A DNA stretch of 64,000 bases from Hyphomicrobiales bacterium (GTDB taxonomy: Bacteria > Pseudomonadota > Alphaproteobacteria > Rhizobiales > NORP267). A program made the position numbers and the translations under genes. Location: NCBI GenBank assembly GCA_030688605.1, contig JAUYJB010000070.1, positions 18,652-82,651 on the forward strand, in the 5' to 3' direction. Each line of letters begins with the position of its first letter. Position 1 is the first letter of the stretch. This document shows positions 30,794 through 34,693 of the stretch, piece after piece. Under the pieces are notes generated by a model, which was not told the DNA's origin, searched no databases, and saw nothing but the letters and a program-made list of their open reading frames with translations.

Positions 30794-32878
30794 TCACAGA
30801 TCGCGGAAACTCTTTCCTTCTCCGGCGAGGCGCTCGATCAGCGGTGCCGGCGTCCACAAGCCCGGCTGGCGCTTCTCATAGGTGCGGATGCCGGCAAGCA
30901 CCTTGTCGAGACCGATCGCATCGGCTGCGAACATCGGCCCGCCACGATATCTCGGAAAGCCATAGCCGTAATGATAGATGATATCGATGTCGCTCGCCCG
31001 CGCGGCAACGCCCTCCTCGAGGATGCGCGCGCCCTCGTTGACCAGCGCATAGAGGCAGCGCTCGACGATCTCCTCAGCCGCAATCTGGCGCCGTTTTACG
31101 CCCATCTCCTGCGACAGGGTTTCGATCAGCGTCGCCACCGCCGGGTCGGGCAGGGGGGCGCGGCTCGTCTCCTCGTAGCGGTACCAGCCGGCCCGGGTCT
31201 TCTGGCCGTAGCGACCCCGCTCGCACAGCCGGTCGGCAACGACGGCGGGATAGGGCTTGGACCTGTCGCGGGACGCTTCCTTGGCCTGGCGGACGCGCCA
31301 GCTGACGTCGGTGCCGGCAAGGTCCATGACCGCGAACGGCCCCATCGCCCAGCCCCAGTCGTAGAGCACCTTGTCGACGGTCTGCGGCAACGCGCCTTCC
31401 AGAAGCAGCGAATAGGCCTGATTCCAATAAGCGTGCAGCATGCGGTTGCCGACGAAGCCGTCGCAGACGCCAACCACGACGCCGATTTTCGAAATTTTGC
31501 GCGCAAGCTGCGCCACCGTGGCCAGCACATCGTCGGCGGTCTTTTCGCCGCGGACGATCTCCAAGAGCTTCATCACGTTGGCGGGGCTGAAGAAATGGGT
31601 GCCGACCACGTCCTGCGGGCGGCCGGTCGACGCGGCGATCTCATCGAGATCGAGAGTGGAGGTATTGGTGGCGAGGATGGCCCCGGGCCGACAGATGCCG
31701 TCGAGAATGGCGAAAACCTCCTTTTTCAGCGCCATATCCTCGAACACCGCCTCGATCACCAGATCGACGGTGGCAAGATCCTCGAAATTGAGCGATCCCG
31801 TCAGCCGCCCAAGGCGGGCGTCGGCTTGCTGCTCGGTCAGACGCCCCTTGTCGACGCTTGCCGCATAATTGCTGGAGATGATGGAAACGCCGCGGTCGAG
31901 TGCATCCTCGGCCGCCTCGACGAGGGTCACGGGGATGGCGGCATTGGCGAAATTCATGGCGATGCCGCCTCCCATGGTGCCGGCGCCGACGATGCCGACC
32001 GAGGCGATCCGGCGCAGCGGCGTGTCCTTGTCGATGCCGGGGACCTTGGCGACATCACGCTCGGCGAAGAACATGTAGCGCAGCGCCGCCGCCTGGGGCG
32101 ATGCGACCAGCTCGGCGAACATGGCGCGTTCCGCGGCCAAGCCGTCGTCGAAGGAAAGCTGCGTCGCGTTCTCCACCGAATCGATGCATGCGCGCGGCGC
32201 GATGAAGCCCCGCTGCTTTTTCGCGACGGTTTGGCGGAAACGCTCGAACAGCTCCGGGCGCGCGGCGACGGTCATGTCGCGGACGCGCCGGCGCGGGCGT
32301 TTCTCGGAGACGATCTTTTCGGCGAACGCAACCGCGCCCGCGAGGAGATTGCCCTCGACGACCTTGTCGACGAGACCCCATTCCAGCGCCTCGGGCGCGG
32401 AAATGGGATCGCCGCTCACGATGGCGGTAAGCGCGCGCTCCGCGCCGATCAGCCGCGGCAGGCGTTGCGTGCCGCCGGCACCGGGCAGTATGCCGAGCTT
32501 GACTTCGGGCTGGCCGAGTTTGGCGTTTTCGCTCGCGCAGCGCCAGTCGCAGCCGAGCGCGACCTCGAGGCCGCCGCCAAGTGCGTTGCCGTGCAGCGCC
32601 GCGATCACCGGCTTGGCGCTGTCTTCACAGGCGGCAACGACCTCGGGAAGCGTCGGGGAGGCCGGCGGCTTGGCGAATTCGGTGATGTCGGCGCCGGCCG
32701 GAAAGGTTCGCCCGGCCCCGATCAGCACCAGCGCCGCCGTTTCGGGGTCCTGGTTGCCCTTGTTGAGGCAGTCGACGAGCCCCTTGCGCACACCGACGCC
32801 GAGCGCGTTGACGGGCGGGTTTGTGATGGTGATGACGCCGACGTTCCCCTCGCGGGCATAGTTCACGAATTCGGCCAT
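30794..32878 (-). CDS. Enoyl-CoA hydratase / 3-hydroxyacyl-CoA dehydrogenase multifunctional enzyme
   Basis: NPPVNAL; GGGLEVAL; [20 protein letters not shown]; [10 protein letters not shown]; HFFSPANVM. Confidence 0.93.
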
Positions 32879-32941
32879 GGCCCCCTCATTTCCGGCTGCA
32901 TTGTCGCCAACGCCGCATGGCGATCAATATCATGCCCAGTT

Positions 32942-33031
32942 TGGCGGATGGGGTGGGATTCGAACCCACGAGGCGGTTGCCCGCCTTCCGGTTTTCAAGA
33001 CCGGTGCCTTCAACCACTCGGCCACCCATCC
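32942..33031 (-). tRNA. tRNA-Ser(UGA), 90 nt, CCA encoded
   Basis: GGATGGG acceptor; CCGGT-CTTGAAA-ACCGG anticodon arm; long variable arm GGCGG-GCAA-CCGCC; GTTCGAATC; CCCATCC-GCCA. Confidence 0.97.
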
Positions 33032-33293
33032 TCAGGTCCGCACCCCGTGGCCCTATCGCGAGGCGCTGGCGCGCCCGGTTTTCAAGACCTTTCGGGCGGG
33101 CGAAAGATTCACCGGATCTTTCGCATTTCCGCCCTCAACTTCAACCACTCGGCCACCCATCCGCAGGTCCGCACCCCGTGGCCCTATCGCGAGGCGCTGG
33201 CGCGCCCGGTTTTCAAGACCTTTCGAGCGGGCGAAAGATTCACCGGATCTTTCGCTTTTCCGCCCTCAACTTCAACCACTCGGCCACCCATCC
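33032..33293 (-). repeat. Two tandem 131-bp tRNA-Ser-derived units 5' of the tRNA
   Basis: 33032-33162 and 33163-33293 differ at 3 positions; each starts with the tRNA's first 24 nt and contains GGTCTTGAAAACCGG. Confidence 0.95.
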
Positions 33294-33319
33294 GTCGCCG
33301 CTCCGCCGCAATGTCTCAG

Positions 33320-33348
33320 CGTTAGACCATTCGGGCAGCGACGCGCAA
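33320..33348 (-). promoter_or_regulatory. Putative sigma70 promoter TTGCGC-N17-CTAACG for the repeat-tRNA transcript
   Basis: About 27 nt upstream of the first unit. Confidence 0.5.
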
Positions 33349-33373
33349 CCCTCGCAGGCCGCGCTAGAGAGGT

Positions 33374-34693
33374 TCAGATCGCAAGCCGCGGCAAAGGGCC
33401 GCCGTCGGCCAGCGCCAGAATGCCTTCGATCAGCGCCTCGGACCGGGGATATCGCCCGAAATCAAGCAGGCCACGCGCCTTGTCGACCATCTGTTCGCTG
33501 CTGAGCGGCATTTCCGGATCGCCCATGGCGTCGCCACGCTCGGCGGAAACGACGCGGCCATTCTCGAGGCGGGCGCTGACGCGGGCGCCCCAATGGGCCG
33601 GATAGGCGCCCTCGAACGACGGCGTCTCGGCAACCTTCACGCGTCCGCGCAGCTTGGCGCATTCGCAGCGCGCTTCCTCATCGAAGGCGGCGAAATCAAC
33701 CCGGTCGCGGCAAAGGGCCGCGGCGACCGTATGCTGGAGCGAGAATTTCGCGTCATAGACCGTCTTCGGCTCGGCGCGGTCGCACAGCGCAAGCGCCGCG
33801 CCGTAGGTCTCCACCTCGATGCTCGCGATCTCGTCCGCCTTGCGCCCATCGCCGGCGAGGGCTTGCCGGATTTCCTGCGCCGCGTCGATCGCCGGGTGGG
33901 TATGGCGGCAGGAGGGCCACGGCTTGATTGAGGTTTGTCTGAGCTGCCAGGGCGCTTGCGGGTCGGCGATGAGGCGCGCCGGCTCCGCATCGGGGCAAAG
34001 AGCGGCGAAAAAGCCACGCGCGCCTTCGAGAATTTCCGGCGCTCCGGTGAAGCCGAGCGCGGCAAGTTCGGCCGCAACCAGGCCCGCTTCCGCGGCGCGG
34101 CCGGCGTGCAGATGCTTCGACATGGCTCCAGTATCGAGGAACTGCCACAGGCCCGCAGCCTGGGTGCCGGCATTGCCGAGGGCGTCGACCGCCTGGGCCC
34201 GTGCGAGTCCGATGAGGCGGGCCACGGCCATCGCCGAGCCGAACGGCCCGCAGGTCGCGGTATTGTGGAAGATGCGGTAGTGGGCAGGCCCCGCGGCCAT
34301 GCCGACGCGTGTCGTCGCCTCGAAGCCCCACAGGATCGCCGACAGAAATTCGCGTCCGCTGCTCTCGCCGAGTCCGGACTCCGCCGCGGCCCACACCGCG
34401 GGAATCGTGATGCAGCCCGGATGAACCACCGATTCGCGGTGCAGATCGTCGACCTCGAGAATGTGGGTCAGTCCCCCTAAGAGAAAAGCACGCCGGCCGG
34501 CGTCGCGCGCCGCGTTCTCGCCGCAGGCGCCGATCCTGCGTCCCCAGGCCACCAGAATCTCGCCCTGCGGGGTTCTGGTGCCGGCGACCACGCTTGCCAC
34601 CGCGTCGAGCGTAAACAGGGCGGCCGCTTCCAAATCCTCCCGCGAAATCTCCTTCGACGCCACAAGGTCGAAAAGTTCTCCGCTCAGGCTCAT
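33374..34693 (-). CDS. MmgE/PrpD family protein
   Basis: LEVDDLHRESVVHPG; FHNTATCGPF; SKHLHAG; KPWPSCRHTH. Confidence 0.92.
   Translation of the reverse strand: MSLSGELFDLVASKEISREDLEAAALFTLDAVASVVAGTRTPQGEILVAWGRRIGACGENAARDAGRRAFLLGGLTHILEVDDLHRESVVHPGCITIPAVWAAAESGLGESSGREFLSAILWGFEATTRVGMAAGPAHYRIFHNTATCGPFGSAMAVARLIGLARAQAVDALGNAGTQAAGLWQFLDTGAMSKHLHAGRAAEAGLVAAELAALGFTGAPEILEGARGFFAALCPDAEPARLIADPQAPWQLRQTSIKPWPSCRHTHPAIDAAQEIRQALAGDGRKADEIASIEVETYGAALALCDRAEPKTVYDAKFSLQHTVAAALCRDRVDFAAFDEEARCECAKLRGRVKVAETPSFEGAYPAHWGARVSARLENGRVVSAERGDAMGDPEMPLSSEQMVDKARGLLDFGRYPRSEALIEGILALADGGPLPRLAI

Follow-up and report, generated by a model that had tools for sequence, protein, structure and literature searches.

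Partial copies of tRNA sequence beside tRNA genes, and insertions within such genes, are known from several systems. In Escherichia coli the 178-bp repeats of tyrT and tyrV, with the rtT RNA, lie 3' of the tRNA, repeat its 3' end and are co-transcribed with it, their function being largely unknown. Introns are found in tRNA genes as group I introns in bacterial anticodon loops and as bulge-helix-bulge introns at non-canonical positions in archaea, and free-standing GIY-YIG homing endonucleases, e.g., SegB of phage T4, are located in tRNA gene clusters. Integrative elements in tRNA genes leave displaced fragments of these genes behind as attachment (att) repeats (Islander, PMC4383910), and tRNA-gene fragments have also been described for tandem and degenerate tycheposons (bioRxiv 10.1101/2020.12.28.424599). 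We have analyzed a stretch of 64,000 nucleotides (hereafter the window) of a Hyphomicrobiales bacterium (contig JAUYJB010000070.1, positions 18,652 to 82,651) in which two tandem units derived from tRNA-Ser, each split by a hairpin, are located directly upstream of the intact tRNA-Ser(UGA) gene. The arrangement is one of partial tRNA copies beside a tRNA gene, as is known, but 5'-located, hairpin-split and with a full-length hairpin-bearing paralogue in relatives. We found no description in the literature of hairpin-capped pseudo-tRNA leader units as a class. With moderate confidence, we consider the units to be pseudo-tRNA scars of duplication, short-repeat deletion and unequal crossing-over that were horizontally acquired and are passively transcribed as a leader of ~290 nucleotides (nt).

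Two hairpin-split units upstream of tRNA-Ser(UGA)

The tRNA-Ser(UGA) is the only tRNA that ARAGORN detected in the window. Upstream of it, Tandem Repeats Finder (TRF) returned a repeat with a period of 131 nt (2.2 copies, 98% matches, 33008-33294), and dissection of the sequence bore out what a first, sequence-only reading of this DNA had proposed, i.e., two 131-bp tRNA-Ser-derived units between a candidate promoter and the intact tRNA (Table 1). On the minus strand each unit consists of a segment A (24 nt), a hairpin H (49 nt), a segment C and a tail L (43 nt). Segment A matches nt 1-24 of the tRNA exactly, and segment C, GGTCTTGAAAACCGG, is the anticodon loop with its 3' strand, 15 nt exactly as in the tRNA. 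Both identities had been proposed correctly, and so had the absence of the T arm and of the 3' acceptor strand from the two units. The distal (U1) and proximal (U2) units differ at three sites, located where that reading had placed them: A/T in the bulge, C/T facing a G in the outer stem, and the final base.

The hairpin can be written TTGA-GGGCGG-AAAW-GCGAAAGAT-CCGGTGA-ATCTTTCGC-CCGCYC-GAAA. It had been described as a 49-nt insert in place of GCACC. The 49 nt are indeed present and GCACC is gone, but the loop CCGGTGA holds CCGGT, the 5' strand of the anticodon stem (a chance of ~0.3% for this pentamer within a 7-nt loop, by our own arithmetic), so that an equally good reading of H is a pair of complementary arms inserted on either side of the retained nt 27-31. 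The right arm of H (33090-33138 and 33221-33269, minus strand) also includes TCGCCCGCC, 9 nt that match the reverse-complemented variable arm of this tRNA in its GCGA allele (found in the related loci L055 and L067). The match hints weakly at an origin of H by fold-back or template-switch copying. The tail L opens with a small hairpin, GGCGC-GCCA-GCGCC, that had been interpreted as a Ser-type variable arm with a compensatory change. It does align to the true arm at 14 of 17 positions, but the same sequence is the start of the leader after the promoter in three relatives (L055, L058 and L060) and its 3' side runs into a leader like the native one of L068, so its identity as a variable arm is ambiguous.

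The H hairpin is present in the predicted minimum-energy fold, and the stability of the whole-unit fold is ordinary (z = -1.4). The units do not behave as functional tRNA genes: ARAGORN did not call them and they obtained no RF00005 score even at E<=10. A cmscan of positions 32000-34500 gave no Rfam family at E<=10 for the units (33032-33293), with no ribozyme family listed, and the families found in the region (tRNA, plus sub-threshold sX4, plastid and tRNA-Sec families) all lie over the tRNA itself. Annotation pipelines miss such units, and the hairpin-split copy found in relatives (see below) would be called a tRNA at a borderline score. As tests of its proposal the sequence-only reading had named homologues and covariation. 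Homologues exist, in metagenome contigs, but among 7 distinct, highly similar copies all 18 pairs of H are paired in 100% of the copies, with no two-sided (compensatory) change and one G-C to G-U change, and the counts of pair changes are indistinguishable from shuffles. The variable columns of H are 3 of the 4 bulge positions, 1 loop position and 1 wobble.

Several other candidates were discarded. An alternative fold in which the H-loop CCGGU re-pairs with ACCGG is 11.5 kcal/mol less stable than the H hairpin. In the thermodynamic fold of the whole precursor, pairing between palindrome arms of different units prevails, and the fold tells nothing of competition among the three 5' acceptor strands. 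A small protein could be read from an open reading frame of 35 amino acids (aa) that starts at the ATG of GGATGGG, but L055 has AGG there and the codon in the bulge varies among K, N, Q and E. Against a terminator or attenuator, H is followed by no U tract and the essential tRNA needs read-through.

Upstream of the units lies a short native leader, x, which resembles the leader of the unit-less sister L065; in L065 and L066, which are closest to the window among the loci without units, GCTGAGCCAATGCGGCGGACCGGCGAC is immediately followed by the intact tRNA 5' end. Before x there is a block, [C/G/A]TTGCG-N17-TCTAA[C/T], that keeps the same distance from the stop codon of a PrpD-like gene in L055, L058, L060, L065, L067, L068 and L072. 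We infer that it is the tRNA promoter. A scan with an E. coli-type consensus missed this block, and neither the scan nor inspection gave any promoter-like site inside the units. The assembly of the window's genome (178 contigs, estimated completeness 100%) has 48 tRNAs by ARAGORN, with only one tRNA-Ser(UGA). Being placed between the sole promoter of the locus and the sole tRNA-Ser(UGA), the units are, to judge from this layout, almost certainly part of the tRNA primary transcript as a ~290-nt leader, repeated pseudo-tRNA sequence that has to be transcribed and removed. That an essential single-copy tRNA stands behind ~290 nt of repeats implies that the locus can tolerate, and exchange between species, sizeable structural insertions.

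We found no other copy of the unit or of H anywhere in the window's genome, and no partial copies near its other tRNAs. The unit is thus not an ordinary repeat of many non-tRNA loci, the finding by which the sequence-only reading would have been refuted, and this single-locus distribution differs from that of dispersed palindromic repeats, i.e., repetitive extragenic palindromes (REP), miniature inverted-repeat transposable elements (MITE) or Rickettsia palindromic elements (RPE). Two other tRNA-Ser loci of the same genome are worth describing. Contig C156 (9.5 kb) carries at 2688-2882 two unusual tRNA-Ser-like genes, GCU (93 nt) and CGA (94 nt), 8 nt apart, with a common acceptor stem, GGAAGGT/ACCTTCC. 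As the genome also has the normal isoacceptors for GCU and CGA, the pair may stem from a mobile element or from contamination. On contig C93 (47533-49011) a tyrosine-integrase match is located ~1 kb downstream of tRNA-Ser(GGA), a classical island-at-tRNA layout, unlike the UGA locus.

Table 1. Positions of the units, the intact tRNA and the flanking features in the window
Feature	Position	Strand	Basis
FadB/FadJ-type enoyl-CoA hydratase / 3-hydroxyacyl-CoA dehydrogenase gene, downstream syntenic anchor	30794..32878	-	PF02737, PF00378, PF00725
Intact tRNA-Ser(UGA)	32942..33031	-	ARAGORN; Rfam tRNA, 65 bits
Unit 2 (U2), proximal pseudo-tRNA unit	33032..33162 (33162->33032)	-	TRF; dissection; minimum-energy fold (H)
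U2, leader-type tail L	33032-33074	-	
U2, anticodon loop + 3' strand (C)	33075-33089	-	
U2, hairpin H	33090-33138	-	
U2, A (tRNA nt 1-24)	33139-33162	-	
Unit 1 (U1), distal pseudo-tRNA unit	33163..33293 (33293->33163)	-	TRF; sequence dissection
U1, tail L	33163-33205	-	
U1, anticodon segment (C)	33206-33220	-	
U1, hairpin H	33221-33269	-	
U1, A	33270-33293	-	
Native short leader x (GCTGAGACATTGCGGCGGAGCGGCGAC)	33294..33320	-	L065/L066 comparison
Conserved block, inferred promoter	33321..33349	-	-35 GTTGCG 33344-33349; 17-nt spacer; -10 TCTAAC 33321-33326
MmgE/PrpD-family gene, upstream syntenic anchor	33374..34693	-	Pfam PF03972, PF19305

Related loci and the proposed origin of the units

The genus of the window's genome has no other species representative, and BLAST of the unit in 60 relatives, a check that had been recommended, matched only the 24-nt tRNA 5' end. 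We describe here the homologues obtained by scanning species-representative genomes with a tRNA-anchored pattern, metagenome contigs with the same idea, and by neighbour-protein look-ups. The metagenome scan gave 4 true homologues, all from JGI Ga0326597 (3300031965), and the look-ups gave 2 more from ENA ERZ27256875, together with three unit-less relatives. H had no true copy in 400 genomes of the order (one chance-level partial match), viral contigs, plasmids or phages. The species-representative scan returned only three betaproteobacterial loci with a different arrangement, in which a 5' half-tRNA, without a hairpin, stands right before an intact tRNA-Ser. These loci belong to a Methylophilaceae genome (L050, 4068-4200, minus strand), a Pseudomonadota metagenome-assembled genome (L051, 4030-4164, plus strand) and Tepidimonas aquatica (L052, 6280-6414, plus strand), and consist of nt 1-38 of tRNA-Ser(UGA), AGTTGTA and an intact tRNA-Ser(UGA) with a different D arm. 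In the L050 fragment the stem strand CAACAGT pairs better with the downstream ACAGTTG than CACCGGT does, which hints at a conserved leader hairpin.

The related loci form a structural series. In what follows P is the promoter, B is GCACC (tRNA nt 25-29), VT is the variable arm, T arm and 3' end, and C/L is C fused to L. Loci without units (L065/66, L067 and L068) have P - leader - intact tRNA. One unit is found in L072 (P - native leader - A' - H - C/L - intact tRNA) and in L055 and L060 (P - L - A' - H - C/L - tRNA). The window and L056 have two, P - x - (A-H-C/L) x 2 - tRNA; L056 is an independent JGI contig with the same array, 3 private single nucleotide polymorphisms (SNPs) in the units and one further site in PrpD. 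A longer form is found in L058 and L074, P - L - [A-H-C-VT] - tumA-tumE - [PrpD 3' end - P - L] - intact tRNA - small GIY-YIG gene - FadB, with the left half of L074, from an independent sample, being as in L058. Here [A-H-C-VT] is a complete tRNA-Ser gene with its own promoter in which H replaces B. It retains a perfect acceptor stem, variable arm, T arm and CCA. Two pairs of the anticodon stem are missing, as is the 3' strand of the D stem, and in L058 this copy obtains 30.6 bits on the Rfam tRNA model against a gathering score of 29. The L058 repeat reaches ~150 nt upstream of the tRNA and includes the promoter, the leader and the end of the neighbouring gene. The FadB/FadJ-type gene also follows the tRNA in L067, L068 and L058.

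Some loci have peculiarities of their own. The displaced 5' end reads GAGCGG in L055, L060 and L072, as in the intact tRNA of L067, and the restored tRNA reads GAGTGG; the L055 unit has also lost its acceptor sequence (GGAGGGG). The H copy of L072 has the bulge AAGA and the loop CCGGCGA. In L060 (337-1091) the tRNA copy ends after the anticodon arm at ...GGTCTTGAAAACCG and is followed by DNA without Pfam, plasmid or window-genome match; the contig either is chimeric or shows the junction of an element inserted in the anticodon arm. In L072 (958 nt) the intact tRNA is continued at its 3' end by CTTCAGAACAGAAC, which flanks the tumA-tumE cassette on the left, and the other contig end is tumE, an order that implies a tandem or circular module of toxin-antitoxin (TA) genes, promoter, unit and tRNA.

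We compared the inheritance of the units with that of their flanks by maximum likelihood, in a tree built from the 597 nt at the 3' end of the PrpD-like gene. The window and L056 were grouped with the unit-less L065 as (L065,(window,L056)), with 91/92 support, and L055, L058 and L074 with the unit-less L068 as (L068,(L055,(L058,L074))), with 91/96 support; L067, also without units, stood apart. Unit-bearing loci therefore are two small lineages separated by unit-less sister lineages, and along the branches the window and L055 are 0.32 changes per site apart. Compared with the L055 clade, the window showed an identity of 76-77% over the PrpD 3' end, 71-73% over the orthologous promoter region, up to 90.7% in the tail L and 97-99% in A-H-C. 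Since the units are more alike between lineages than the flanks, these sequences indicate that they are shared horizontally between co-occurring, ~23%-diverged species, and such sharing would explain most of the apparent conservation of H.

The origin that we favor would start with a duplication of [promoter-leader-tRNA], a state that L058 and L074 still show, with tumE-tumA between the copies. The upstream copy would have been inactivated by the palindromic H (49 nt), which it either already carried or took up and which replaced the 3' strand of the D stem together with the beginning of the anticodon stem. A deletion between short repeats, either AAAACCGG (anticodon arm and leader start) or GCCTCG (variable arm and leader), would then have fused the H copy to the downstream leader, giving the 131-nt unit that is single in L055, L060 and L072, and unequal crossing-over at the 24-nt/131-nt repeats would have given the two units of the window and L056. 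The junction of the unit, GGTCTTG-AAAACCGG-GCGCG, is precisely the product that would be expected of a deletion between the two AAAACCGG copies of L058, the first of which is part of the anticodon arm in the H-bearing tRNA and the other of which opens the second leader. The tail from GCCTCGCAAC on is homologous to the native leader of the unit-less L068, and micro-homology at GCCTCG between the variable arm and an L068-type leader would join equally well as an alternative route. Transfer between species would have been by recombination, probably anchored on the invariant tRNA sequence. The essential tRNA would be transcribed from the upstream promoter through both units, and the RNase P cut at the tRNA +1 would free the leader for degradation. 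If so, the series of duplicated promoter-leader-tRNA with TA genes, one unit and two units is an unusually complete natural record of the origin of a tRNA-linked repeat.

Several observations weigh against this origin. The 30 paired positions of H are invariant in the 7 distinct copies, bar one G-C to G-U, and at least 3 of the 5 variable columns fall in the bulge (p ~0.002, by our own arithmetic), which fits conserved structure too; the clustering, as far as the alignment goes, fits a stable hairpin in DNA or RNA and is no evidence of function. Inside the same units H diverges by 0-4% vs. 9-25% for the tail, and the two differences of H are not significantly few when the closest tail allele (9% diverged) serves as the reference. 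Every H copy is directly behind a tRNA promoter and leader, and [H-C/L-A] is joined at exactly nt 24/25 in three leader backgrounds: x (window), L068-type (L072) and L (L055/L060). For this last pattern a targeted insertion is simpler than repeated recombination within 24 nt. Besides, the AAAACCGG and the hairpin of the leader may themselves be tRNA-derived, in which case the unit would be older than the L058 state.

Toxin-antitoxin and GIY-YIG genes of the related loci

The tumE-tumA genes that separate the two tRNA copies in L058 and L074 form a toxin-antitoxin pair for which translation inhibition has been shown experimentally, with an RNase activity of TumE being proposed but not demonstrated (PMC10584680). 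At E<=1e-20 we counted 3191 relatives for the toxin of L058, and identities of 80-92% were frequent among them. In two contigs, L107 (2385-5241) and L109 (2501-5357), tumE-tumA genes with toxins of 89-90% aa identity to that of L058 are located 0.5-1.2 kb from large serine recombinase genes (Resolvase+Recombinase+Zn_ribbon_recom) and adjoin other toxin-antitoxin genes, with no tRNA nearby in the inspected contigs; by its gene neighbours this TA family would therefore travel on integrative elements. As close tumE relatives are common with no tRNA or H nearby, the toxin is to be seen as promiscuous cargo and not as a fixed partner of H, and the idea of a TumE decoy based on co-occurrence was rejected. 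The window's genome has its own tumE-tumA paralogue on contig C109 (34425-35330), with 47-56% aa identity to the L058 genes. On either side it has a 23-nt direct repeat, CGCTTCGCTCCATACGGGCTACG (34425 and 35304, both exact and without further copies in the genome). It adjoins a HicA/HicB-like pair (named by reading the sequence; no family search was run), and looks like an inserted cassette.

In L058 (2282-2637) and L055 (945-1300) the GIY-YIG gene (80 aa) lies ~115 nt downstream of the intact tRNA and is preceded by two palindromes, one of which, CCCTCCGAAGC...GCGAAGGAGGG, recurs in L081 and L083. Relatives of its product (P0121) were found in 27 of 401 genomes of the order (loci L075-L104). 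Of the 30 loci, 24 have the gene at a distance of 95-560 nt downstream of a tRNA gene on the same strand, and 13 tRNA species by anticodon are represented. Judging from these positions, the cassette family looks tRNA-linked and is probably mobile, and breaks in the donor clade could plausibly come from its nuclease. A general link of the gene to 5' pseudo-copies was discarded, none of the other 24 cassette-bearing tRNA loci showing one, and no small GIY-YIG gene was found at the window locus. One of these loci, L075 (870-1740), has three copies of a T-arm segment (nt 51-67), spaced 149 nt, between tRNA-Gln(CUG) and the downstream GIY-YIG gene, i.e., a 3' tRNA-linked repeat array.

Other explanations and comparison with known systems

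The constant junction at nt 24/25 would be accounted for by a self-healing insertion targeted to the tRNA, an explanation that we regard as unlikely. The 131 nt [H - anticodon segment - L - tRNA nt 1-24] would be a non-autonomous mobile module entering tRNA-Ser(UGA) at nt 24/25, with the 1.2-kb tumEA form as its cargo version; the replacement leader and 5' end would keep the tRNA intact, and the old 5' end would be displaced upstream and capped by H. As each hit re-creates the target, repeated hits would yield tandem arrays, and the window does have tandem copies. Mobilization would be in trans, e.g., by a recombinase or at breaks that the small, tRNA-linked GIY-YIG nuclease introduces. The junction, nt 24 followed by TTGAGGGCGG, is identical in the three leader backgrounds, modules that are almost identical are scattered patchily over lineages that differ by 23%, and in L055, L060 and L072 the displaced 5' end is of the other natural allele (GAGCGG) and the restored one is GAGTGG. 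The joint of L072 between the intact tRNA and the left flank of the TA cassette is as expected of a tandem or circular form, the GIY-YIG gene follows the tRNA in L055 and L058 and is tRNA-linked in most loci of its family, and relatives of tumEA are carried on elements with large serine recombinases. But the window locus has no recombinase or nuclease gene, its contig (C95) gave no hit to the tyrosine recombinase family PF00589, and the only small GIY-YIG gene of the genome is located elsewhere and is not tRNA-linked. There is a single target with a single genomic copy, the other GIY-YIG-linked tRNA loci have no 5' pseudo-copy, no target-site duplications are seen beyond the homology itself, and the module was found in two metagenomes only. 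Homologous or short-homology recombination can also yield all of these observations. If H were either a targeted insertion or a selected RNA, it would represent a new way for selfish DNA to colonize tRNA genes without killing them, or a new tRNA-derived RNA. A related view is that H acts as a DNA recombination site, the 9-7-9 inverted repeat GCGAAAGAT-CCGGTGA-ATCTTTCGC with GGGCGG/CCGCCC and extrahelical AAAW being the core site of a site-specific recombinase, or a single-stranded DNA hairpin (integron attC-like or HUH-transposase-like), and the array being the product of the enzyme. The architecture does resemble recombinase core sites and attC hairpins with extrahelical bases, the copies are directly repeated and the locus is structurally plastic; we still find this view very improbable, given that the contig has no tyrosine recombinase, H has no GTTRRRY/RYYYAAC attC core, no other H was found in the genome, 400 genomes of the order or the viral, plasmid and phage collections, and two direct H repeats persist unresolved in two strains.

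The sequence-only reading had suggested a dedicated RNA. Extended to the relatives, such a tRNA mimic would be full length in L058/L074 and truncated in the window. It could lure away a translation-targeting toxin such as TumE by serving as a decoy or by mimicking its target, be a ligand of seryl-tRNA synthetase (SerRS) or of modification enzymes, or tune, as a leader, the maturation of tRNA-Ser(UGA). The stems of H are invariant, with changes confined to the bulge, the loop and one G-U, each copy lies behind the tRNA promoter, and the L058/L074 copy, which keeps acceptor stem, variable arm, T arm and CCA and obtains 30.6 bits as tRNA, adjoins tumE, a translation-inhibiting toxin with a tumEA paralogue on C109 of the window's genome. 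On the other hand, the 18 pairs show no compensatory change in the 7 distinct, similar copies, the H-bearing loci belong to a tiny clade, are absent from the closest sisters and did not appear in the 400 genomes of the order or in the tRNA-anchored scan of species-representative genomes, and recent horizontal spread can explain the conservation. The copy number varies (0, 1 or 2), the acceptor strand of the L055 unit is mutated, and by established tRNA identity rules units without T arm and 3' acceptor strand would not be expected to be recognized by RNase P, CCA addition or SerRS. The window locus has no TA genes, and tumE relatives at 80-92% identity appear in thousands of contigs, with neither tRNA nor H close by in the ones inspected. 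The dedicated mimic, decoy or maturation-control RNA is thus unsupported: compensatory change is absent, the units occur in two lineages, their near-identity agrees with horizontal sharing, the copy number ranges from 0 to 2, and L055 has lost the acceptor sequence. We consider it quite unlikely. As for an artefact of metagenome assembly, the genome is indeed fragmented into 178 contigs and repeats near the k-mer size can be mis-assembled. This explanation is effectively refuted: the independent L056 has the same two units with private SNPs, the two units of the window differ at 3 sites, and forms with one unit or with the H-bearing tRNA appear in five further contigs from two projects.

The origin by duplication, deletion and unequal crossing-over, which remains our preferred one, brings the locus close to the att repeats of Islander and tycheposons. 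Like in those, a partial exact copy of the tRNA lies beside a regenerated intact gene, with 24 nt plus 15 nt of exact tRNA identity per unit; successive events lead to arrays of partial tRNAs, TA cargo is found between the copies (L058), and the distribution is horizontal and patchy. Unlike in those, the part duplicated is the 5' end with the anticodon loop and 3' strand (nt 1-24 plus C) and not the usual 3' part, the 3' end being absent. The "island" of the window is only 131 nt, with 107 nt between the repeats and no integrase (the 1.1 kb of L058 also lack a recombinase), the displaced copy carries a unique 49-nt hairpin, and in L058 the repeat continues for ~150 nt on the upstream side of the tRNA, as far as the last part of the adjacent gene.

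The tyrT/tyrV repeats are similar in being tandem units of 100-200 nt beside a tRNA with an exact tRNA segment in each. As the sequence-only reading had pointed out correctly, those are located 3' of the tRNA and repeat its 3'-terminal segment; the units described here are 5' of it, contain nt 1-24 and the anticodon loop with a hairpin insert, and have to be read through for the tRNA to be expressed. With tRNA introns the full-length copy of L058/L074 shares a structured insert near the D/anticodon-stem junction of an otherwise complete tRNA gene. The host is a bacterium, though, an intact copy is always also present, there is no bulge-helix-bulge motif and no Rfam intron family, group I included, was found. 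Joining the flanks of H gives ...GTTGAAG/GGTCTTG... with GCACC missing, so the removal of H would fail to restore the tRNA. The ends of H also differ from integron attC sites, which have RYYYAAC/GTTRRRY cores and act with a tyrosine recombinase. The donor clade also offers a parallel with SegB-type endonucleases: a small GIY-YIG gene lies directly downstream of the intact tRNA in L055 and L058, its family is tRNA-linked across the order, and nuclease-induced breaks would promote this kind of duplication and gene conversion, although the window locus is without such a gene and other cassette-bearing tRNA loci are without 5' pseudo-copies.

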